Of a stretch of 64,000 nt of DNA, positions 16,548-28,702 are shown in pieces. Both the position numbers and the translations under genes were made by a program. Each line of letters starts with the position of its first letter. Positions within the stretch are counted from its first letter, which is position 1. Source of the stretch: Terriglobia bacterium (lineage in GTDB: Bacteria; Acidobacteriota; Terriglobia; JAJPHL01; JAPKYU01); contig CBDCKA010000002.1 in the NCBI GenBank assembly GCA_965218055.1, positions 1,056,695 to 1,120,694 of the forward strand. Direction: 5' to 3'. The notes under the pieces were generated by a model. That model was not told where the DNA came from, searched no databases, and saw nothing but the letters and a program-made list of their open reading frames with translations.

Positions 16548-17180
16548 GTGCCAGTCATGAAGCGTCTTGTTACGGTTCCGCTGATGTTTCTAGCTCTGCT
16601 CGGCAACCGGTCGGACCAGCCCCGGGCAACCGAACCGGAACTCTCAGAAGCGCTGGCGGAACAGATGGAGAAGAAGCTGGCGCAAATCACCGACCGGGAT
16701 GACCGAGCCCAGGGTGCCGCCACCAACCCGCACAACTCTCATGTAGTGACAGTTCTGCTGGAAGAAGAAATCAATTCCTATTTCAAATACCGGATGGGCG
16801 CGAAGATTCCAGCCGGCATCTCCCAGGTGCGTGTCCAGTTGCGCCCCCAACGTCCTTCGGCAACCGCCCTGGTGGACTTCGACCGCTTCAAGGCTGCCTC
16901 GCGCCGACCCATCCATCCCCTGCTCGACACGTTGCTCGATGGCCAGCACACGGTTGGAGTGCGCGGCCGTTTTACTTCCTCAAACGGTTCCGGGGTGTTC
17001 CATCTGGAAGAGGTCTCCATCGGAAGCTTGGCCCTCCGCGGTGCCTTGCTGGAGTTGCTCGTCCGCCATTTCATCCAGCCCCGCTATCCCGAGGCGGCCA
17101 TCAATCGCCCGTTTGCTTTGGCGGAGGGGATCGAGCAGGCGGTGGTCGAGGAGGGACGCGTTGTCATCCATCAGAAGTGA
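16548..17180 (+). CDS. hypothetical secreted protein
   Basis: signal-like N-terminus; co-oriented with the operon. Confidence 0.65.
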   Translation: MPVMKRLVTVPLMFLALLGNRSDQPRATEPELSEALAEQMEKKLAQITDRDDRAQGAATNPHNSHVVTVLLEEEINSYFKYRMGAKIPAGISQVRVQLRPQRPSATALVDFDRFKAASRRPIHPLLDTLLDGQHTVGVRGRFTSSNGSGVFHLEEVSIGSLALRGALLELLVRHFIQPRYPEAAINRPFALAEGIEQAVVEEGRVVIHQK

Positions 17181-17228
17181 TGGGCAGAGGTAATGGGCAG
17201 AAATGACCGGCACGACTGTTCAGCAATG

Positions 17229-17255
17229 AAAAAGGGAACCCGTGGCCGGATCCCC
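17229..17255 (-). terminator. rho-independent terminator
   Basis: minus strand GGGGAUCCG-GCCA-CGGGUUCCC-UUUUU; the stem needs G-U pairs available only on this strand. Confidence 0.8.
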
Positions 17256-17331
17256 TCTGGTTGATTTCAGCGCCCGCGCTGGTGGCTCGGAACAGCCGCC
17301 AGCGCGGCGCGGGCTGCTTTTGCAGTTGAGG

Positions 17332-17385
17332 CTACTTGCGTTTCTTCTTCGCCTTCTTTGCTTTCTTCTTTGCTGTCTTCTTCAT
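17332..17385 (-). CDS. 17-aa Lys-rich peptide MKKTAKKKAKKAKKKRK
   Basis: AGGAGG 9 nt upstream of ATG; own promoter and terminator. Confidence 0.7.
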   Translation of the reverse strand: MKKTAKKKAKKAKKKRK

Positions 17386-17489
17386 GCTGCGCATCCTCCT
17401 TGGCTACATTCTCCCTATGGGAACCACTGGATATCGTTCCCGCCGGCGGGAAATGCTCAACATGTTGAGCCTTCCCCGAGATTAGGCTC

Positions 17490-17517
17490 AGTGTATAGAC
17501 TTCGGTTTTCTTGTCAA
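17490..17517 (-). promoter_or_regulatory. sigma70-type promoter for the small peptide gene
   Basis: TTGACA-16 nt-TACACT on the minus strand. Confidence 0.65.
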
Positions 17518-17607
17518 GAACAAAATTTGAGAAACATGTTTTATTGTAAGCCGCCCACTCTCGCCACTCCTATTCCTCGCCGTTGGACTCCGCCAACCTC
17601 ATTGCGG

Positions 17608-17684
17608 TCGACAACCAGCATTGACAACACCAGCGATTGACAACAGCAGCGATTGACAACAGCAGTTGACGACAGTAGTTGACA
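17608..17684 (+). repeat. array of TTGACA-containing 13-16 bp repeats
   Basis: units start at 17608 (degenerate), 17621, 17637, 17653, 17666, 17679. Confidence 0.85.
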
Positions 17685-17707
17685 AGCGGCCAGACGCGCT
17701 CTATGTT
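17679..17707 (+). promoter_or_regulatory. sigma70 promoter of the porin operon
   Basis: TTGACA-17 nt-TATGTT. Confidence 0.7.
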
Positions 17708-17712
17708 TTGTG

Positions 17713-17748
17713 AACCATGGTATGGTTTACTTTTAAACCTAGGTTAAA
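17713..17748. promoter_or_regulatory. candidate DtxR-family operator(s)
   Basis: inverted repeats AACCAT-GGT-ATGGTT and AACCTAGGTT just downstream of the -10. Confidence 0.55.
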
Positions 17749-19108
17749 GAAGATCCAAGCCACCTGGCTGTTTTTCCTGCTTGCCGTTGGCGCCGTTGGT
17801 GCAGCCGTTGCGGAGCAGTCTCCGGACCCGCAAGCGCGCATCCGCGCTTTGGAGGAGCAGGTGCGTCAGTTGGAAGAACGCCTCGCGCGGCTGGAGGCGA
17901 GCGCCGTCCGGCCACAGGCGGCGGTTTCCGCCCCTACCACGGCGCCGTCAACTCCGGCGTCTCCCGAGGTGTCGGTGCCGCCGGTGGAGGCGCCTGCTGG
18001 CACCGCCGCGCCGGTGCAGGCCGTTTCGGTGACTGCCAGCTCGCCCCCAATTAAGGATTCCGAGGAAAGCGTAAATCTGCCCTATGCGGGCTACATGGAA
18101 TTTCACCTGAACAAGCCGCGTGGAGAATCCGCACAGTTCGACTTTCACCGGTTCGTGCTGCTGTTCGGCCACAGTTTTTCGTCGCGCATCAAGTTCTGGT
18201 CGGAGCTGGAGCTGGAACACTCCATTGTCGAAGGCGGAGAGGAAAAGGGGGAGCTAGAGCTGGAGCAGGCCTACCTGGATTTCTACCTGAATCCCTATTT
18301 CAACCTGCGTGGGGGAATGGTGCTGGCGCCGATGGGGATCATCAACGAGCGGCACGAACCGCCTGCCTTCTTCGGAGTCGAGCGCCCGATGGTGGACACG
18401 GTAATCATCCCCAGCACTTGGTTTGATCTTGGCGTGGGAGCCTGGGGGGATTTGGGGCGGGGCTTCACCTATCGCTTCTACCTGATGTCGCCGCTTGACG
18501 CCACCGGCTTTAGTGCGGACGAGGGTCTGCGCGGCGGCCGCCAGAAAGGCTTCCGCTCCAACGTGCGCAACTTGGCCAGGACGGCGCGGGTGGAATACCG
18601 TGGCATTCCTCGGCTGACGCTGGGCGGCAGCATCTGGGCGGGGCGCACGGGGTTCGACACGCCCGACCTGGACGCGCCGGTGCGTCTGGGCAGCTTCGAC
18701 GGGCGTTACTCCTGGAGTCGCCTGGAATTCCGTGGCCAATACGCGCATGGGTGGATTCGGGAAGCAGGATTGCTCAACCGCACGTTGCAGCGGCGCCGCG
18801 GCGTCAACCCCAACATCGCTGAGCAGATTCGGGGATTCTACCTGGAGGGCGGCGTCTACCTGTTGCCGTTCCATAGCTCGCAGAATCTGGCGGTGTTCAC
18901 CCGCTACGAGAATTTTGATACGCAGTACCGGATGCCGGACGGCTTCTTGCCCCTGGCGCAGTTCGACCGTTCGAGCTGGACGGTGGGTGCCAGCTACTTC
19001 CCGCACCCGGACGTGGTGTTCAAGGCCGACTACGTCTTCAACCGCAACGCCAGTCAGGTGATCGAAACCCGGGATCAGTTTAATCTCGGCCTCGGCTGGT
19101 GGTTTTAG
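17717..19108 (+). CDS. outer-membrane porin (OprO/P-like beta-barrel)
   Basis: signal peptide, coiled coil, ELELEQAYLDF, C-terminal aromatic WWF. Confidence 0.8.
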   Translation: MVWFTFKPRLKKIQATWLFFLLAVGAVGAAVAEQSPDPQARIRALEEQVRQLEERLARLEASAVRPQAAVSAPTTAPSTPASPEVSVPPVEAPAGTAAPVQAVSVTASSPPIKDSEESVNLPYAGYMEFHLNKPRGESAQFDFHRFVLLFGHSFSSRIKFWSELELEHSIVEGGEEKGELELEQAYLDFYLNPYFNLRGGMVLAPMGIINERHEPPAFFGVERPMVDTVIIPSTWFDLGVGAWGDLGRGFTYRFYLMSPLDATGFSADEGLRGGRQKGFRSNVRNLARTARVEYRGIPRLTLGGSIWAGRTGFDTPDLDAPVRLGSFDGRYSWSRLEFRGQYAHGWIREAGLLNRTLQRRRGVNPNIAEQIRGFYLEGGVYLLPFHSSQNLAVFTRYENFDTQYRMPDGFLPLAQFDRSSWTVGASYFPHPDVVFKADYVFNRNASQVIETRDQFNLGLGWWF

Positions 19109-19179
19109 GAGATGGGATCCTTGCGGACTAGTTCATGGACCATGGAGGCTTTTCAATTTCATCCGACGGAGGCAACCAG

Positions 19180-19521
19180 GTGATTCCGTTGTTGCTGTTT
19201 CTCCTGCTGGGACAGGCAGGCCCGGAGCCCGTGAAGCATGAGCCGAAGCGGGTGTACATGCGCGCGGAACGCTTCAGCTTCACTCCTTCGCAAATCAAGT
19301 TGCAGGAGGGGCAGCCGCTGGAGCTGACGATCGTCAGCGAAGATACCCAACACGGCTTCTGGATTCGCAAGCTGGGGATCAATTACTTGATCCCGGCGCG
19401 TGGCAAGGGAGAGTTGAAACTGAAGATCGAGTCGCTCGAACGCGGCCAGTATGTCTTCGAGTGCTCGCGCGCTTGCGGAGCCGAGCACAACATGATGCGG
19501 GGCGTGATCAAGGTCAAGTGA
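19180..19521 (+). CDS. secreted cupredoxin with CuA-type motif
   Basis: GTG after GGAGG; DTQHGF and CSRACGAEHNMM (H...CxxxCxxxHxxM). Confidence 0.8.
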   Translation: MIPLLLFLLLGQAGPEPVKHEPKRVYMRAERFSFTPSQIKLQEGQPLELTIVSEDTQHGFWIRKLGINYLIPARGKGELKLKIESLERGQYVFECSRACGAEHNMMRGVIKVK

Positions 19522-19548
19522 ACAGGGAAGGCAAGGATCGGGAAGCCT

Positions 19549-19583
19549 GGGCTCCGAGCCACGAGCGTCAGCGAGTGGTCCCT
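19549..19583. repeat. REP-like element
   Basis: gagccacgagcgtcagcgagtggtccc imperfect hairpin (translates PLADARGS on the minus strand). Confidence 0.5.
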
Positions 19584-19630
19584 TGCGGCACGACTGCCAT
19601 GACGCTCGGTTGCGGATGCAGGAGGGAATC

Positions 19631-20848
19631 ATGACCAGCAGGATACTGCGCTTGGGGTTGTTGGGTGTCGTGCTGCTTGCGGCGCCGGGCATCTACTGGC
19701 TCGGTGGCTCCCCCGCGGGCGCGCGTGCCGCCGCGGGGGCGGGTGAGCCGCAGTTCGGGGACCCGGTCCGCGGCCTGACCCCGTTTGAATTCGAACTGTT
19801 CCGACTGGGCCTGGAGGATTTCCTGGAGGTGGAGGAGCCGGAAGATGGCCTGGGGCCGGTCTTCAACGGACGCTCCTGCGCCGAGTGCCACAGCATTCCG
19901 GCCGTCGGCGGTTCCGGCACCATCCTGGAACTCCGGGCTGGTCTCCGTAACGAGGACGGCAGTTACACCGAGCTGCCCGGCGGCTCGGTGTTCCAGCTCT
20001 TCTCGATCCCGCCGCACGGCTGCCACAAGCTGATTCCGCCAGAGGCCAACGTGTTTTCACGGAGGAAGTCGCTGCCGCTGTTTGGCAATGGGTTGATCGA
20101 AGCGATTCCTGAAGAGGTGCTGTTACTGGGCGCTGCCGCCAACCAATCCCATCCGGATGGCATCGGCGGGCGTCCGCACATGGTGGTAGACGTGTCGACC
20201 GACACAACCCGCGTGGGCCGCTTCGGCTGGAAAGCGCAGCAGGCCACCCTGATGAGCTTCGGCGCCGAAGCCTACCTGGAAGAGATGGGCATCACCAGTG
20301 ATCTGTTCCCGCAAGAAGTGGAGGCAGGCTTTGACGACCCACGTAAGACGCGCGACTGCGACCCGCGCCCCGATCCTGAGGATGCGCGCGAGCCCCTGAC
20401 CGGGCTGCGCGGCATTGATAACTTTGCCAACTTCCTGCGGATGCTGGGCCCGCCTCCCCGCGGGCCGCAAGACGAGTTGACCGCAGCCGGCGCACAGGTG
20501 TTCGAGCAGATCGGTTGCGCTGCCTGCCACCTCCCGGTCATGCTTACGGGTCCAGCGCGCGAGCCCTGGCTGGATCGCCAGCCCGTGCGGCTCTACTCTG
20601 ACCTGTTGCTGCACGACATCGGCACCGGCGACGGGCTGCCGCAGGGTGACGCTTCCGGCGACGAGTTTCGCACACCTCCCCTTTGGGGGCTGCGGGTGCG
20701 CTCCCCGTTTCTGCACGACGGCCGGGCGCCGAGCGTTGAGCAGGCCATTCGTATGCATTGGAACCAGGCCGAGCAAAGCGGGCGTCGCTTTGAGGCTTTG
20801 ACAGACCAAGAGCGAACCGCTTTGCTACAATTCCTGAAGTCGCTGTAG
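19631..20848 (+). CDS. di-heme oxidoreductase (DHOR family), secreted
   Basis: GLGPVFNGRSCAECH, CAACH, GRFGWKA, FRTPPLWGL, FLHDGRA. Confidence 0.88.
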   Translation: MTSRILRLGLLGVVLLAAPGIYWLGGSPAGARAAAGAGEPQFGDPVRGLTPFEFELFRLGLEDFLEVEEPEDGLGPVFNGRSCAECHSIPAVGGSGTILELRAGLRNEDGSYTELPGGSVFQLFSIPPHGCHKLIPPEANVFSRRKSLPLFGNGLIEAIPEEVLLLGAAANQSHPDGIGGRPHMVVDVSTDTTRVGRFGWKAQQATLMSFGAEAYLEEMGITSDLFPQEVEAGFDDPRKTRDCDPRPDPEDAREPLTGLRGIDNFANFLRMLGPPPRGPQDELTAAGAQVFEQIGCAACHLPVMLTGPAREPWLDRQPVRLYSDLLLHDIGTGDGLPQGDASGDEFRTPPLWGLRVRSPFLHDGRAPSVEQAIRMHWNQAEQSGRRFEALTDQERTALLQFLKSL

Positions 20849-20853
20849 CAGCT

Positions 20854-21600
20854 TTGGGGGGGGGGAGCGCACTCGGGCAGGACCGCGTCCAACCCGAAAA
20901 GGAGACCGATATCGCCGCCAAGCGCAGACCGCCGCGGGTCCCACTGGGAGAGGCCGTTGAAGACTATTTGAAGACGGTCTATCAGCTCACGGTCGGGGAA
21001 ACACCGGTCTCGACCAGCGCCGTGGCGGCGGCGCTGAAGGTGTCGCCGGCCGCCGTCACCAAGATGCTCCGGCGCCTTTCCTCCCTGCGGCTGGTAGATC
21101 ACTCCCGCTACCGGGGTGTCCGCTTGACGCCCGCGGGACGGCGAGTGGCGCTGGAAATCGTGCGGCACCACCGCCTGCTGGAACTCTACCTCAGCCACGC
21201 GCTCGGCTATCCGCTGGAGCGCGTACACGAGGAAGCGGAAATCCTGGAACACGCCATCTCGGAAGATTTCGAGGAACGCATTGACCGCCTGCTGGGCCAT
21301 CCGCAGGTGGATCCGCACGGCGATCCCATCCCCACGCGCTCCGGTTCCGTCCCCAAGACCCTGGGCGGAATGCTCGCGGATGCCGAAGTGGGCGAAAAAC
21401 TGGAGGTCTGCCGCGTGCGCGACAATGACGGGGAGCTGTTGCGCTACCTGGTTTCGCTGGGATTGGTACCGAAGACCCGGCTGGAAGTGATGGAAAAGCT
21501 CCCCTTTGGCGGCCCCGTGAAGGTGCGCGTCGGCGGCACCGGCGTCGAGCAGTTCGTTGGCCACGAGGCTGCCTGCAGCGTCTTCGTCGAGCGCCGCTGA
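20854..21600 (+). CDS. DtxR/MntR family metal-dependent repressor with FeoA-like domain
   Basis: VEDYLKTVY, RHHRLLELYL, EAEILEH, DPHGDPIP; start uncertain. Confidence 0.9.
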   Translation: MGGGSALGQDRVQPEKETDIAAKRRPPRVPLGEAVEDYLKTVYQLTVGETPVSTSAVAAALKVSPAAVTKMLRRLSSLRLVDHSRYRGVRLTPAGRRVALEIVRHHRLLELYLSHALGYPLERVHEEAEILEHAISEDFEERIDRLLGHPQVDPHGDPIPTRSGSVPKTLGGMLADAEVGEKLEVCRVRDNDGELLRYLVSLGLVPKTRLEVMEKLPFGGPVKVRVGGTGVEQFVGHEAACSVFVERR

Positions 21601-24399: not shown

Positions 24400-24408
24400 T
24401 GTCTCATT

Positions 24409-25362
24409 ATGAAGTATCCAAAGACGTTAGTTGATGCCATCCGATACTTTCAGGACTTCGAGCGGTGCCGCGAGTTCATGATAGAACTTCGCTGGCCGGA
24501 CGGCAAGGTGAATTGCCCGCGGTGCGGTGAGGACCGCGTGAGGTGGCTGGAAAAGGCTCGGGTTTGGAAGTGCTACGCAAAGCACAAGCAGCCCACCTTC
24601 TCACTCAAGACGGGGACGATCTTCGAAGATTCCCCAATCGGTCTGGACAAGTGGATCGTGGCCGTATGGCTGGTTGTCAACTGCAAGAACGGCGTCTCAT
24701 CCTACGAGATAGGCCGCCATCTTGGAGTTACGCAGAAGTCGGCCTGGTTCATGAATCACAGGATTCGGAAGGCGATGCAGGAAGGCTCGTTCTCAAAGCT
24801 CGGCGGAGAGGTTGAGGTCGATGAGACGTTCATCGGCGGGAAGGCCCGCAACATGCACGTCTCGAAGCGGAGGCGTCGTATCACAGGGACAGGGGGGAAG
24901 GACAAGACGGCCGTTCTCGGCATGTTGGAACGCAACGGCAGGGTACGAACCACCGCGCTAGAGGATCGGCGCAAGCGAACAATCCAGCCGGAAGTTCGCG
25001 AGTATGTTGAGGCTGGCGCGGCTCTCTTTTCCGATGAACTTTTGTTGTATGACGGGCTAGAAGCCGACTACGCCCACGAGGTCATCGACCATGCCGTGGA
25101 GTACGTGAGGGGGAATGTCCACACAAATTCTTTGGAAAATTACTGGTCCCTTCTCAAGCGCGGCCTGAAAGGGACATACGTTTCTGTCGAGCCGTTTCAC
25201 CTATTCCGTTACCTTTCCGAGCAGGCTTTCCGGTTCAACAACCGCAAGGCTCAGGGTGGAGACTTCGAGCGATTCGTGCTTGCAATGGCGCAATCTGTCG
25301 GGAGGCGTTTGACCTTTGATGAGCTTGTGGGGAGAACGCCTAGTCCAGCGGCAGTTTACTAA
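24409..25362 (+). CDS. IS1595 family transposase
   Basis: N-terminal Zn ribbon CPRC, VEVDETFIGG, HTNSLENYWSLLKR, FRFNNR. Confidence 0.92.
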   Translation: MKYPKTLVDAIRYFQDFERCREFMIELRWPDGKVNCPRCGEDRVRWLEKARVWKCYAKHKQPTFSLKTGTIFEDSPIGLDKWIVAVWLVVNCKNGVSSYEIGRHLGVTQKSAWFMNHRIRKAMQEGSFSKLGGEVEVDETFIGGKARNMHVSKRRRRITGTGGKDKTAVLGMLERNGRVRTTALEDRRKRTIQPEVREYVEAGAALFSDELLLYDGLEADYAHEVIDHAVEYVRGNVHTNSLENYWSLLKRGLKGTYVSVEPFHLFRYLSEQAFRFNNRKAQGGDFERFVLAMAQSVGRRLTFDELVGRTPSPAAVY

Positions 25363-25544
25363 GAAGGAGGCCGAGAGGCAGGGTCGCGGGAAACGCCGCG
25401 ACCCTTAACGATATTTTTCATTGCAGATTGAAACCGACTGAACGCCTCTTCACCTTCGATCAGATCAGGGGTCTTTCCTTCCCGTTGAAGAGCCGGGCGG
25501 CTGGCATCCGCCTTAGCTTTCCTTCTCTGTGGTTGTGCGTCCAA
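25359..25544 (-). CDS. small hypothetical protein convergent with the transposase
   Basis: 61-aa ORF whose stop overlaps the transposase stop. Confidence 0.45.
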   Translation of the reverse strand: MDAQPQRRKAKADASRPALQREGKTPDLIEGEEAFSRFQSAMKNIVKGRGVSRDPASRPPS

Positions 25545-25600
25545 GCAACCTCCAGCAAGCGAACTGTAACCCGCTTACAAGGAGGCTGTCAACCATGGAT

Positions 25601-26378
25601 TCACACACGGCTGGAAACGCACTCAATCACCGTGCGAACCTCACGCACCATTTCTGGGAGCATATAGGGAACTTCAAGTGGTTTTTCTGTCGAGAGGGAT
25701 GTGAGCATGGAGATCACGCAATATGCCGTGAATTTAGGGTCGGCATCCTTAGACGGACCCGAGAAAATGAGCTCGCCGACCTTTGCGCCGTCTACCACTT
25801 CGGACACCCCGTTGAGCATATCGGGAACAGGGAGTCTAGGGTCCTGATTCCAAGCCCAGCCATCACGCATTTTAAAGACCAAAGCAATGCGGAGCAAATG
25901 GTGTTTGTCAGAGTCATCGAAACTTTTGAGCAGTCGAAGAAGCGGCGGGAGTGTTTTGTGAGGTCGATTGTACGGCTGGAACCTCTCGATTTCTTTAATC
26001 ACGGACTGTCCTATCCTGAGAAGTGGGGAGGAAGACACGGCTCTTTGAAAGGAGGCGGGATCATATCCGATCGGAAAGGACCAAGCTCTCTTCCGTGGGG
26101 GTGGATTCGTGTTTGTTCGGAAGATGGCGATGGCGTAAATGAGGTGGTCCAGAGCACATCGGAGGTTGTGGATGGCATCGCCGATAATCAGAGACCACCT
26201 CTCAAGACTGGGCGCATGATCGACGATGGCGATAGCCCAGTACCTGGAAAAATCGACGTTGTGTTCAACGGAGACTCGATACGGCTTGCTGTTGATCCAG
26301 GGAACCAGTTCCTTCTCGAAGGTGTTTATATGCTCCTCGGCACGATGGAACTTTGCCCATACGCTAGAAAAGTCGGCG
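25601..26378 (-). pseudogene. frameshifted, 5'-truncated passenger gene (HEPN-like helical family, tentative)
   Basis: minus-strand frames read AKFHRAEEHI...IGDAIHNLRCALDHLIY, then QPYNRP...LLKSFDDSDKH. Confidence 0.55.
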
Positions 26379-26420
26379 TGTCAAGGACTGATTTCTTTAG
26401 ACACTGATTCTGAGAGTTTT

Positions 26421-27220
26421 TTACGCGACTAACGCATACCGTTTGGCGAATACCACAGGCGGCATGTTGAGCGCGGAGTGAATCCGCGTGTTGTTGTAGT
26501 CCCACAGGGTGCGGTAGATCTCCGCCACTAGCTCCCCCAGTGTTTTGAAGCGGTTCGGATCTCCCAGGTCAACCTTGAATTTGTCGTAGAACGATTCCTG
26601 GTATCCGTTCTCCCAAGGGCACCCCGGGCGGCTCCGTGAAATCACGATGCCGCATCCATCAAGGATTTCAGTGAACGCCATCGCGTCATACTCCCTCCCG
26701 TTGTCGGAGTGGAATAGACCCGGGCGCGGATGATGGAGCAGGGCGTTGGAAAGCGCCTGAATGGTGAGCGCGGCTCCCTTTCTCACCGCAACCTGGATTC
26801 CCAGGATCCGGCGGGTGTAGAGATCGATCACGGTCGCCACATAGGCCTTCTTTCCGTGCTGCACGAACTCGGTGAAGTCCGTTGCCCAGATGTGGTTTGC
26901 ATATGCGGGCATGACCGCGAGCAGGAGGTTGGGATAGGTCCGGGAAACCTTGGATTTTCTCCATTTTCTGCCTCTCCTGCGGTAGGGCTTGATGCCAAAC
27001 AGACGCATGACCCTCTGCGCCCGCTGGCGGCAGAGTCCCAGTGCCGTAGCAATTCGCCGGGAGCCGTAGGAGGGATGGATCTGCAGCTCTTCTTCCAGGC
27101 GGACCTTGAGGCGCCAGTCCTTCTCCTTCATTCTTGGGACGTAATACAGGCTCGCGCGGGATATGCCAAGGGCTCGGGCAAGCGCTGATTTGTTTCTTCC
27201 TTCGCTCAATTGTTTTTTTG
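26421..27220 (-). CDS. IS3 OrfB DDE transposase (-1 frameshift fusion)
   Basis: WATDFT, HSDNG, ENGYQESF; A7C slippery site near 27212-27219. Confidence 0.88.
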
Positions 27221-27466
27221 AGTCATGGAGAGCTTGAGCGTGATCTCGCCCACGAGTTCCAGGAGTTCTCTGTTCTGCTTCTGAAGTCGGGAGAACTCCG
27301 CCCAGGACGGGGCACCGGTTGCTCCTTTTACCATCCAACCATAGATGCTCCCTTCAGAAATACCGTGATCCTTGGCGGCCTGGGCCACCGAGATGCCTTC
27401 TTCCTTGACGCGGCGTAGGATATCGGCTTTTACGTCAGCTGCAATACGATGATGTTTTTTGTTCAT
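27206..27466 (-). CDS. IS3 OrfA HTH protein
   Basis: HTH (SVAQAAKDHGISEGSIYGW) plus leucine zipper. Confidence 0.85.
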   Translation of the reverse strand: MNKKHHRIAADVKADILRRVKEEGISVAQAAKDHGISEGSIYGWMVKGATGAPSWAEFSRLQKQNRELLELVGEITLKLSMTQKNN

Positions 27467-27728
27467 ATGACACCAGGGTAGTTAATTCCCAACCTCAGTG
27501 TCTAAATTACCCAGTCCAGGGCAATCCGCCTACAGACAAGGGTCTAGAGGAGGGTTATGGCACAGGGCACGTCACAAACCCACCTTCGCCGTGAGTGATG
27601 GTACCAGCCCCTGCCGCCGCTTTGTAATTCGGAATACTTATTTTCAACAGAAAGGCTGGACAGAACCACGGGGCGGGCCCCCTTGACTCGTGAAGTGGGT
27701 AGGAGGATGATATGCGGTGCCCTGGCCA

Positions 27729-27828
27729 GTGCACGAGCTGCTGAGGCACAAGAACGTTGAGACCACGAGAGGCTACACACACGCCTGACCGTGGCAGGCG
27801 AGGGGTTCCCAGCCCTGTGGAGCAGATC
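27729..27828 (+). pseudogene. integron integrase-like C-terminal remnant
   Basis: VHELLRHKNVETTRGYTH, then shifted RGRRGVPSPVE, resembling the IntI tail VQELLGH..TT.IYTHV..RG..GV.SPLD. Confidence 0.6.
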
Positions 27829-27982
27829 GGGCAGGCTCCTTCCATCGAAAGCCGGAGGAGAGCCGGGGAATCATGCGGACCGGCGGTCCGTATAAGATTC
27901 CGGACGCATGTCGCCGAATGGAACTGAAGTCTCTGAATCTTGTGAGCAGGTACAGCCATAGGTACGGAAGGAATCGAACAAC

Positions 27983-28702
27983 ATGAATCAGTACAAGAGC
28001 ATCGCCCGGTACTACGATCTGGTGATGGATGCCGGCTACTACGATCACAAGTCGTTGGCCAGAGTCATTCAAGCCACGATCGGCGAACGTAGAAGGGTGC
28101 TTGAACTTGGCGTGGGGACGGGCCTGTTGGCACGAGAACTTTGTAAACTCGATTCGTCCTACCATTTTACCGGCGTAGATTTCAGTCCCTCGATGCTGGA
28201 GATTGCTCGGGAGCGTCTGCCCAGTCGAGTTTCACTCATAGAATGCGATGTTGCCGAAATGAACCTTGACCGCAAGTTTGATGTTGCCTTATCGAGCGGC
28301 GGTACGTGGGTCATAATCCGGTCGGACAAAGAGTTGCTGCTGGGAACACATTTGCTCAACCGCGAAAAGGACTTCAAAGGATTGCAAAACGTTGCCGACC
28401 ATCTTGATGCCGGTGGGCTCTTGTTGTTAAGCGTCCAGAAACCCCATGAAGACCGTGACATCGACTTGGTCAATGGGATTGTCTATTCCCAAAGAATTGA
28501 CGGTCGCAACGGCACCTCCGACCACTTTTTCATCGAGAAGGGATATTCCTTTAAGAGGAATGGACAACTCCTTGCAGAAGAGAAGTTGACCTTGGGATTC
28601 TACAAACACACAGTGTTTCCAGGGATGCTTGCTGATGCTGGCTTCTCACCTTTGGGAATGACTGATACCGAAAAATTCTTCGTGTGGCAAAAGGTGAAGT
28701 AG
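27983..28702 (+). CDS. class I SAM-dependent methyltransferase
   Basis: VLELGVGTG, GVDFSPSML. Confidence 0.88.
   Translation: MNQYKSIARYYDLVMDAGYYDHKSLARVIQATIGERRRVLELGVGTGLLARELCKLDSSYHFTGVDFSPSMLEIARERLPSRVSLIECDVAEMNLDRKFDVALSSGGTWVIIRSDKELLLGTHLLNREKDFKGLQNVADHLDAGGLLLLSVQKPHEDRDIDLVNGIVYSQRIDGRNGTSDHFFIEKGYSFKRNGQLLAEEKLTLGFYKHTVFPGMLADAGFSPLGMTDTEKFFVWQKVK

Follow-up and report, generated by a model that had tools for sequence, protein, structure and literature searches.

The plus strand of a 64,000-nucleotide (nt) stretch of a Terriglobia bacterium genome (assembly GCA_965218055.1, contig CBDCKA010000002.1, positions 1,056,695 to 1,120,694), referred to here as the window, carries four co-oriented called open reading frames (ORFs) encoding a porin, a CuA cupredoxin, a di-heme c protein of the DHOR/DUF1111 family and a DtxR-family regulator. 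The first three constitute a conserved three-gene set of Acidobacteriota (Terriglobia, mostly Bryobacterales) that most likely belongs to an MntR-type regulon. As to function, the reading that we favour, at a probability just short of even, is that of a Mn(II)-repressed module spanning outer membrane and periplasm; its heme-CuA redox pair would act on what the porin admits and would serve separate permeases. A first-pass annotation of this DNA had named the four products, and all four identities are confirmed where it had placed them.

Conservation of the gene set was followed at two depths. Among 41 genomes (the host and 40 others of the same class), a search with the cupredoxin recovers close orthologues (E ≤ 4e-30) in seven, and in six stretches of 9–16 kb around the orthologues porin, cupredoxin and DHOR occur together at 50–91% identity. 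In these six stretches, the regulator and the flanking genes are kept only in two genomes of the window's genus; elsewhere the flanks hold an ATP synthase, a metallophosphoesterase or a TonB-dependent receptor. A wider scan with the cupredoxin alignment covered one genome per species from 185,579 species, and the best 80 of the 137 relatives' loci were used for comparison. Porin is found by tblastn in 80/80 of these loci and DHOR in 78/80, and the order porin–cupredoxin–DHOR on one strand is kept in 78/80; of the two exceptions, one contig (L031) ends just 3′ of the cupredoxin gene and the other locus (L080) has no DHOR hit. With one exception, the loci are labelled Acidobacteriota (Terriglobia, Bryobacterales, Bryobacteraceae, Solibacteraceae). 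The exception (L046, CAZTKA010000147.1), a contig of 7,957 nt placed in a bin named 'uncultured Bordetella sp.', holds the full triad in the same synteny and, like the Acidobacteriota loci, at 49–56% identity to the window's proteins; misbinning, not transfer, is the probable cause.

When the 824 ORFs of the 80 loci are clustered, no family besides the triad and the regulator occurs in more than seven loci, the most recurrent other neighbours being an RND (resistance-nodulation-division) pump (seven loci), a methyltransferase (seven) and a signal peptidase (six). The conserved unit therefore consists of three genes. A gene-neighbourhood survey, the kind of check that the first-pass annotation had proposed, thus finds the set conserved across Acidobacteriota loci; its four-gene module holds for porin, cupredoxin and DHOR, whereas a DtxR gene is linked in only 26/80 loci. 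Its observation that imelysin, permease and oxidase subunit I are missing is upheld both at the window locus, by Pfam scan, and among the recurrent neighbours of the 80 loci, Ftr1 not having been searched genome-wide. Imelysin (PF09375) has no match anywhere in the 97.8%-complete, 4.28-Mb host genome, and the scanned ORFs show no Pfam match to DUF1513.

The porin gene (17717–19108, plus strand) encodes a protein of 463 residues, free of cysteine, with a signal peptide, a periplasmic coiled coil, an Ala/Pro-rich linker and a 16-strand barrel. Its match to Pfam Porin_O_P (PF07396) is marginal (22.9 bits against a cut-off of 20.9, covering 74 residues). The AlphaFold model (predicted local distance difference test score, pLDDT, of 80.7) comprises the signal helix, a coiled-coil helix (residues 38–63), a disordered Ala/Pro-rich linker (residues 65–114) and 16 strands, which form the barrel with an internal loop that typifies trimeric 16-strand porins. 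A Foldseek search with this model returns the trimeric porins OmpT, OmpU, OmpM1, OmpF, OmpC and OprP (E values of 3e-12 to 1e-10), and the Atlas neighbours of the protein are unnamed Acidobacteriota clusters together with a Porin_O_P cluster. The marginal Pfam match, the 16-strand model, the Foldseek matches and the Atlas neighbours together show that the label 'porin' is correct. An alignment of the window protein with 42 orthologues reveals an invariant NERHE motif at residues 210–214, followed by two prolines of which one is nearly invariant and one invariant, as well as many further invariant histidines and glutamates. The NERHE motif belongs to the predicted constriction loop.

The second gene (19135–19521, plus strand) encodes a small cupredoxin of 128 residues, secreted or anchored, that bears a complete CuA ligand set and does not belong to an oxidase. 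Pfam assigns it to Cupredoxin_1 (7.3e-8) and COX2 (2.4e-4), and the ligands are H73...C110-x3-C114-x3-H118-x2-M121. H73, C110 and H118 are invariant in 49 relatives, C114 and M121 recur in 90% or more of them, and all five ligands are invariant in the seven close orthologues. With a profile of these seven, the closest sequences of the Protein Data Bank (PDB) are CuA domains of the Thermus ba3 oxidase (2e-13 to 8e-12, among them 6pty at 2e-13 and 2cua at 5e-12), with the ligands aligned. By fold and ligands the protein is thus of the CuA type, and a binuclear copper centre is predicted. It differs from an oxidase subunit II in having a single N-terminal hydrophobic stretch, not two transmembrane helices, and no oxidase subunit I is found among the neighbours in the window or in the 80 loci. 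The oxidase-type COX2 homologues of the host are separate genes with far weaker matches (E values of 2e-5 and 6e-4). Fused forms of the cupredoxin number none at E ≤ 1e-8 among 188 longer candidate proteins, which is weak evidence.

Other small stand-alone CuA-like cupredoxins with the H...CxxxCxxxHxxM pattern occur in the same class in unrelated contexts. One (L020, 7783–8148) follows an ECF (extracytoplasmic function) sigma/anti-sigma pair and a metallophosphoesterase and precedes a cytochrome c, two (L023, 7803–8234, and L025, 7985–8350) lie 3′ of a type III polyketide synthase, and a fourth (L024, 7912–8346) adjoins phosphate ABC (ATP-binding cassette) transporter and PhoU genes. The small CuA protein thus appears to be a wider, little-noticed theme in the class.

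The third gene (19631–20848, plus strand, in an ORF open from 19583; the likely start methionine is at 19631) encodes the DHOR protein, of about 365 residues when mature. It matches PF06537 with an E value of 1.8e-41 (142.6 bits against a cut-off of 22), over profile positions 213–499 only. Its two heme c sites (CxxCH) are spaced by about 212 residues in nearly all full-length relatives, and both cysteine pairs and both histidines are invariant in 43 sequences. The structure model is of low confidence (pLDDT 63.4) and has an extra beta-rich insertion. A VIA-align comparison of this model with 48,161 chains nevertheless suggests that DHOR belongs to the bCCP/MauG fold class, the six best matches (HZS-gamma, MauG, BthA, YhjA, BccP and MbnH) all being members of the di-heme peroxidase/MauG superfamily, at middling Z-scores of 5.2–5.8. 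Behind them comes a caa3 oxidase, matched through its cytochrome c domain (Z 4.1, DHOR residues 281–405). Foldseek finds nothing in the PDB at E ≤ 0.001, the best match being hydrazine synthase gamma at 0.019.

The presence of MauG (Z 5.7), BthA (Z 5.6) and MbnH (Z 5.2) among these best matches bears on a maturation or copper-handling role, in which oxidative modification by DHOR would form or fill a metal site in the porin or in its small partner of beta-sandwich fold, as with MbnH and MbnP, which are accompanied by a transporter of the outer membrane. The genes follow a similar logic, in that the MbnPH and MopE/CorAB systems also combine an outer-membrane protein, a small copper protein and a di-heme enzyme. 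Such a role is nonetheless very unlikely here: the CuA ligand set of the cupredoxin is ordinary, conserved and complete as it stands, so that no modification is called for, Pfam CCP_MauG (PF03150) stays below its cut-off for DHOR (E 0.009, 17.1 bits against 25.6), and the regulator described below is not of a copper-sensing type.

Sequence profiles of DHOR reach the di-heme peroxidases of Nitrosomonas (1iqc, 4.3e-7) and Shewanella (3o5c, 1.5e-6), a remote relationship that agrees with the fold matches. In three alignments, an invariant histidine, H392 (ORF numbering), falls on the methionine ligand of the high-potential heme of 1iqc and 3o5c. The peroxidase-type His/Met ligation of the electron-accepting heme is thus absent from the DHOR alignments, and two histidines probably ligate the heme of the C-terminal cytochrome c domain, which would set it apart from that of a canonical peroxidase. 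These features frame a stress-defence explanation, according to which Mn-dependent antioxidants fail when manganese is scarce and DHOR acts as a copper/heme periplasmic peroxidase fed by the CuA cupredoxin, much as cytochrome c peroxidase is fed by pseudoazurin or azurin. Kinship with the peroxidases, the manganese type of the regulator and the known ability of small cupredoxins to donate electrons to such peroxidases all speak for it. However, peroxide diffuses freely and would not need a strictly conserved porin as first gene of the set, the invariant histidine at the methionine position argues against a canonical donor-accepting heme, and the co-regulated ZIP-like permease and, in other genomes, the FeoB-like gene are transporters. 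We consider the stress-defence role distinctly unlikely.

The DHOR proteins of the set form their own branch of the family, as judged from sequence. PF06537 is above cut-off in 61 of 151 sampled genomes of the class (a count that includes two genomes marked unpublished, G074 and G090). Of the best 30 DHOR loci, 12 have the cupredoxin and porin and encode a DHOR 55–100% identical to that of the window, whereas the other 18 have neither and encode proteins only 30–39% identical. In a maximum-likelihood tree of the 30 proteins, the 12 lie on one side of a single branch (support 77/73, with 84% of bootstrap trees in agreement). An imelysin gene lies within 1.5 kb in only one of the 18 loci outside the set (L110), the check having covered 33 of 86 called ORFs, the larger flanking ones; the tree placement of the L110 protein is unsure because of its long branch. 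The background that DHOR genes usually accompany imelysins, on which the first-pass annotation drew, thus largely does not carry over to this class.

In caa3- and ba3-type oxidases, donor and acceptor are a heme c domain and a CuA domain, and it is because of this known pairing that DHOR and the cupredoxin are read here as partners. A complex prediction for DHOR residues 40–405 and cupredoxin residues 36–128, made with both alignments, scored 0.00 in two runs and, being control-free, is uninformative either way.

The fourth gene (20854–21600, plus strand) encodes a DtxR-family metalloregulator of the MntR type with helix-turn-helix, metal-binding/dimerisation and FeoA/SH3-like domains (PF01325, 3.2e-16; PF02742, 4.4e-30; PF04023, 2.1e-18). 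It is the only DtxR-family gene of the host genome, which likewise has a single DHOR gene. The best NCBIfam match is the Thermus-type MntR family NF047407 (1.8e-66, as against 2e-22 for actinobacterial DtxR), at 224.1 bits against the MntR equivalog cut-off of 350. The closest solved relatives are 5zr4, 8pvt, ScaR and SloR. The regulator carries the motifs EDYLK and HEEAEILEH, which are identical in the ScaR/SloR alignments, and E[D/N]YLK and [D/E]EAExLEH are present in 18/18 linked regulators recovered by blastp from the called ORFs of the loci, in addition to the window's own. By a rule said to be that of Guedon and Helmann (2003), iron-sensing DtxR/IdeR proteins have Met10 and Cys102, and Asp and Glu at these positions mark manganese sensors. 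With Asp or Asn and Glu at these positions, and MntR, ScaR and SloR as nearest relatives, the regulators are most likely of the manganese (MntR/ScaR) rather than the iron type, and manganese is the likelier signal. Of the DtxR/MntR repressor first annotated, the type of metal sensor thus stands and iron becomes the less likely metal.

The start of the regulator merits a remark. A run of ten guanines (20857–20866) spans the DHOR/regulator junction, and contigs from the RNA libraries of close relatives described below have one guanine fewer in 3/3 runs, which may reflect a strain difference or a homopolymer assembly error. The only canonical start codon, the annotated TTG, lies inside this run. 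The missing guanine puts this start in doubt, and the true start is probably downstream of 20856.

The 26 loci with a DtxR homologue show four arrangements: divergent and directly upstream of the porin gene (18 loci), convergent and directly downstream (four loci, in three of which a multicopper oxidase adjoins the regulator), on the same strand downstream (two loci, of the window's genus only), and further downstream beside a FeoB-like gene (two loci, L042 and L048). In the divergent intergenic regions, a common palindrome of approximately GTTAACTATAGTTAAC lies between a TTGACA box and the gene start. Its core, TTAAC-N4-GTTAA, probably represents the operator of the regulator. In the window, a promoter-like TTGACA-N17-TATGTT (17679–17707, plus strand; 10 of 12 consensus matches, in a region conserved in the genus) ends 10 nt 5′ of the porin ATG, so that the leader would be very short. 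Just 3′ of it lies the candidate MntR-type operator TAAACCTAGGTTAA (17734–17747), which matches nine of the ten half-site positions and starts at +18 of the porin ORF. At the same place the same-genus genome G001 has TAAACCCGGGTTAA, whose centre is changed yet still palindromic.

The palindrome was examined in 66 loci, the other 14 having an unaligned porin N-terminus or less than 150 nt of upstream DNA. A TTAAC-N4-GTTAA site with at most one mismatch lies upstream of the porin in 39/66 loci, that is, in 16/22 with a nearby regulator and in 23/44 without one, as compared with four sites in the remaining 657,742 nt of the 66 loci. A degenerate 14-mer scored at 12 or more of 14 positions gives a similar picture (16/22, 24/44 and, for random windows of these loci, 5/400). 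The 44 regulator-free loci provide an independent test, since the motif was derived from regulator-bearing ones. In L042 and L048, additional sites lie 5′ of the regulator gene itself. Recurrent linkage to an MntR-type gene and the palindrome at porin promoters are strong signs of the metal-sensor control that had been proposed from the window alone. A reading in which the regulator lies next to the triad by accident or as a trait of one genus, and in which the triad has nothing to do with metal supply and is a housekeeping branch of electron transfer, would accord with the 54/80 loci that have no DtxR homologue within about 6 kb and with the palindrome missing in 27/66. It is nevertheless highly improbable: 26/80 loci in four arrangements are far above expectation for a single-copy gene in 12-kb stretches of 3–9-Mb genomes, and the frequency of the palindrome in regulator-free loci contrasts with its near absence elsewhere.

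The promoter is preceded by a tandem array of a 16-nt unit (17604–17685, plus strand; about 4–5 copies), each unit holding a TTGACA-like hexamer. Tandem Repeats Finder reports a period of 16 and 3.3–5.4 copies, and the alignment shows one or two copies in the two same-genus genomes G001 and G002. The last copy provides the –35 box of the porin promoter, and the array could alter promoter strength or supply extra –35 boxes.

Across the host genome, the half-site pattern has 20 matches with at most one mismatch, one of them at the porin 5′ end. The sole perfect site, TTAACCTTGGTTAA (G000:C2:2421792), lies 22 nt 5′ of a multicopper oxidase operon (L108, 2830–5018) that encodes a two-domain multicopper oxidase of 335 residues with a twin-arginine translocation signal, followed by a membrane protein of 394 residues with a weak, below-cut-off ZIP match (1e-6). 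The oxidase is 59% identical to its counterpart next to the L090 regulator, and in L104 and L100, too, the regulator is adjoined by oxidases that share its ORF cluster or Pfam domains; the ZIP-like protein has no match to its L090 counterpart beyond the N-terminus. This operon probably belongs to the same regulon, as a second member. The host genome also has ten Nramp-family paralogues, unusually many for 4.3 Mb, two of which show identical motif hits at identical upstream distances.

The second operon and the FeoB-like neighbours raise the iron version of the system, in which the regulator would sense Fe(II) and the set would be an analogue of EfeOB or imelysin-DHOR systems without imelysin or permease. 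Fe(II) admitted by the porin would be oxidised by DHOR and peroxide or via CuA, and Fe(III) passed to a separate transporter, with multicopper oxidase and permease working like Fet3/Ftr1. CuA, at about +250 mV, could oxidise chelated Fe(II), not Mn(II). The perfect operator belongs to just such an oxidase and permease, and a FeoB-like gene adjoins the regulator in L042 and L048. In addition, two reports tie DUF1111/DHOR to iron-uptake operons (PMC3143127; 10.1101/072470). Against iron, Asp or Asn with Glu stands in all recovered regulators where DtxR/IdeR have Met and Cys, the matches among profiles and in the PDB point to MntR, ScaR and SloR, two Fur-family genes are available in the host for iron control, and its genome yields no imelysin. 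On balance, the iron version appears unlikely.

Signs of expression come from three metatranscriptome runs of one study, whose contigs, 95–99% alike to the window, together bridge all three gene junctions: porin–cupredoxin (19034–19321), cupredoxin–DHOR (19481–19774) and DHOR–regulator (20566–20997, 20669–20939 and 20782–21096). The contigs give no cover at about 17350–18560, which is uninformative. They hint weakly at expression of the genes in nature, and perhaps at their co-transcription.

In the Mn(II)-repressed module that we favour, a regulator dimer would, when metal is plentiful, occupy TTAAC-N4-GTTAA, which overlaps the promoter of the porin gene or the gene's 5′ end, and the operon would be off. 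When metal is scarce, the three genes would be co-transcribed, in the window's genus together with the regulator gene. The 16-strand porin, with a pore loop lined by invariant His and Glu, would pass the metal, either as such or in complexed or oxidised form, into the periplasm. There, DHOR and the CuA cupredoxin would form a heme c/CuA electron-transfer pair that alters the redox state of the incoming or of a competing metal, such that inner-membrane permeases could take up Mn(II). Candidate permeases are the co-regulated ZIP-like protein and the ten Nramp paralogues. The identities of the genes, the conserved triad, its repeated linkage to MntR-type regulators and the high specificity of the palindrome for porin promoters are established; the role of the palindrome as operator, the DHOR–cupredoxin partnership, Mn(II) as the signal and the whole of this chemistry are what we infer from them.

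Several points weigh against this picture. By the precedents known to us, Mn(II) import needs no redox step, which leaves the role of the redox pair unexplained, and the FeoB-like and oxidase-plus-permease neighbours fit Fe(II) equally well. The metal specificity of the regulator is read from two residues by a rule of thumb, and the relatives MtsR and TroR are reported to respond to other metals. The assignment of the palindrome as operator rests on comparative genomics: the motif was first read off regulator-bearing loci, so that only the 44 others are independent, and the 27 loci without a site include families f9 and f2 (L030 and L044 scored 10/14). The window site itself has one mismatch and sits inside the coding region, and a search for 14-mers common to the porin upstream region and the ten Nramp upstream regions gave nothing above noise. 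Many loci come from closely related metagenome-assembled genomes (the rows of L084 and L088 are identical), and the counts therefore overstate independence. The DHOR model has a pLDDT of 63.4, and its fold matches have middling Z-scores. Finally, the RNA contigs are assembled, derive from one study and from close relatives, may contain DNA and are no proof of a single transcript.

A bolder form of the Mn(II)-repressed module, which we regard as somewhat unlikely, sees in the cupredoxin the first CuA protein known to stand free in nature; in a new metal-acquisition machine, it would carry electrons within the periplasm between DHOR and the metal admitted by the His/Glu-lined porin. When manganese runs short, Mn(III) complexes or oxide-derived manganese would be reduced to Mn(II) by the pair, or competing Fe(II) oxidised, and ZIP and Nramp proteins could then import manganese selectively. 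Together with the multicopper oxidase and ZIP-like operon, this would amount to a copper/heme-dependent Mn-starvation regulon in a phylum that ranks among the most abundant of soils.

The set differs from the nearest described systems, the imelysin-DHOR operons and EfeUOB/FtrABCD, in its stand-alone CuA cupredoxin, its porin, its lack of imelysin and permease and its MntR-type regulator. EfeUOB and FtrABCD likewise serve metal uptake with a cupredoxin-type domain that works in the periplasm next to a heme or redox protein. They include an Ftr1-type permease, none of which is found at the locus, and the cupredoxins of EfeO and FtrB are not CuA sites. The CuA domain of subunit II of Thermus thermophilus ba3 oxidase (2cua, 1ehk) shares the fold and the H...CxxxCxxxHxxM ligands, whereas the protein described here stands alone with only an N-terminal signal or anchor and is encoded with a porin and a di-heme protein. 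Di-heme peroxidases, MauG, MbnH and BthA share with DHOR two c-hemes, an aligned region with PxLRN-like and HDG motifs and, as the fold matches suggest, two cytochrome c-like domains, and differ from it by the methionine ligand that is replaced by histidine and by the beta-rich insertion of DHOR. MntR, ScaR and SloR regulons also have a Mn-type DtxR-family repressor and a palindromic operator, here a candidate, at uptake promoters. To our knowledge, no MntR regulon includes a CuA protein, a DHOR or a multicopper oxidase, and titles and abstracts in the literature yielded nothing relevant on a link between MntR and cupredoxins. EfeB, for its part, is a DyP-type peroxidase.

The same EfeB is called a DUF1111 member in one report (PMC3143127). 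A close parallel is offered by the imelysin-DHOR operons, such as PA4370–PA4373 of Pseudomonas aeruginosa and the arrangement EfeO-like/DUF1111/EfeO-like/DUF1513 (PMC3143127; 10.1101/072470). According to these sources, the operons are alike in having a periplasmic DHOR, metal control and no inner-membrane permease, and are thought to aid iron uptake. The Acidobacteriota set has neither imelysin nor a DUF1513 match and instead has a CuA cupredoxin and a porin; its regulator is MntR-type, not Fur, and its DHORs are only distantly related to the imelysin-linked L110 protein and to the other DHORs of the class. By its proposed role, the porin can be likened to MnoP of Bradyrhizobium, a precedent for an outer-membrane channel dedicated to Mn(II) (PMC6011978). 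No published description of the set and no matching characterised operon were found in the literature searched, supplementary tables lying outside its coverage, which agrees with the first-pass suggestion of a possibly undescribed system.

Two further features of the window lie outside the set. Upstream of the porin promoter, on the minus strand, a tiny ORF (17332–17385) with a GGAGG ribosome-binding site encodes a Lys-rich peptide of 17 residues, MKKTAKKKAKKAKKKRK, that is kept in both same-genus genomes and has the appearance of a leader peptide or of a tiny basic protein associated with the ribosome. It has a promoter-like site (TTGACA at 17517, TACACT at 17490) and a leader reaching to about 17483, which is conserved and contains two perfect 16-nt palindromes, TTCCCGCCGGCGGGAA and GCTCAACATGTTGAGC. 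The blocks GCTCAACATGTTGAGC (17455), TTCCCGCCGGCGGGAA and TGTCAAGAACAAAATT, all conserved in the genus, were considered as operators and rejected: genome scans gave no related sites near metal genes, and a promoter scan assigned the three blocks to the minus-strand promoter and leader of this divergent ORF. An Rfam search of 17150–17800 returned only a chance microRNA match (E 0.67). Further downstream, the G+C content drops from about 0.65 to 0.52–0.56 at about 24400–28500, where three ORFs (24409–25362, 26421–27338 and 27206–27466) look transposase- or integrase-like by eye and probably form an insertion-sequence cluster.

Acidobacteriota of the Bryobacterales group are among the commonest bacteria of soil and peat, and little is known of how they acquire trace metals. 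If the Mn(II)-repressed module is real, its cupredoxin would show that soluble CuA proteins occur in nature beyond oxidases and nitrous-oxide reductase, a point of interest to bioinorganic chemistry, in which engineered fragments have been studied so far. The DHOR/DUF1111 family would gain a second, cleaner genetic context and a defined one-electron partner, a pairing that could be tested in vitro. The predicted operator provides a simple handle for mapping the regulon across the phylum. A manganese-sensor regulon that includes copper and heme redox enzymes would imply a part for redox chemistry in manganese supply or in telling manganese from iron, in soils that cycle both metals.

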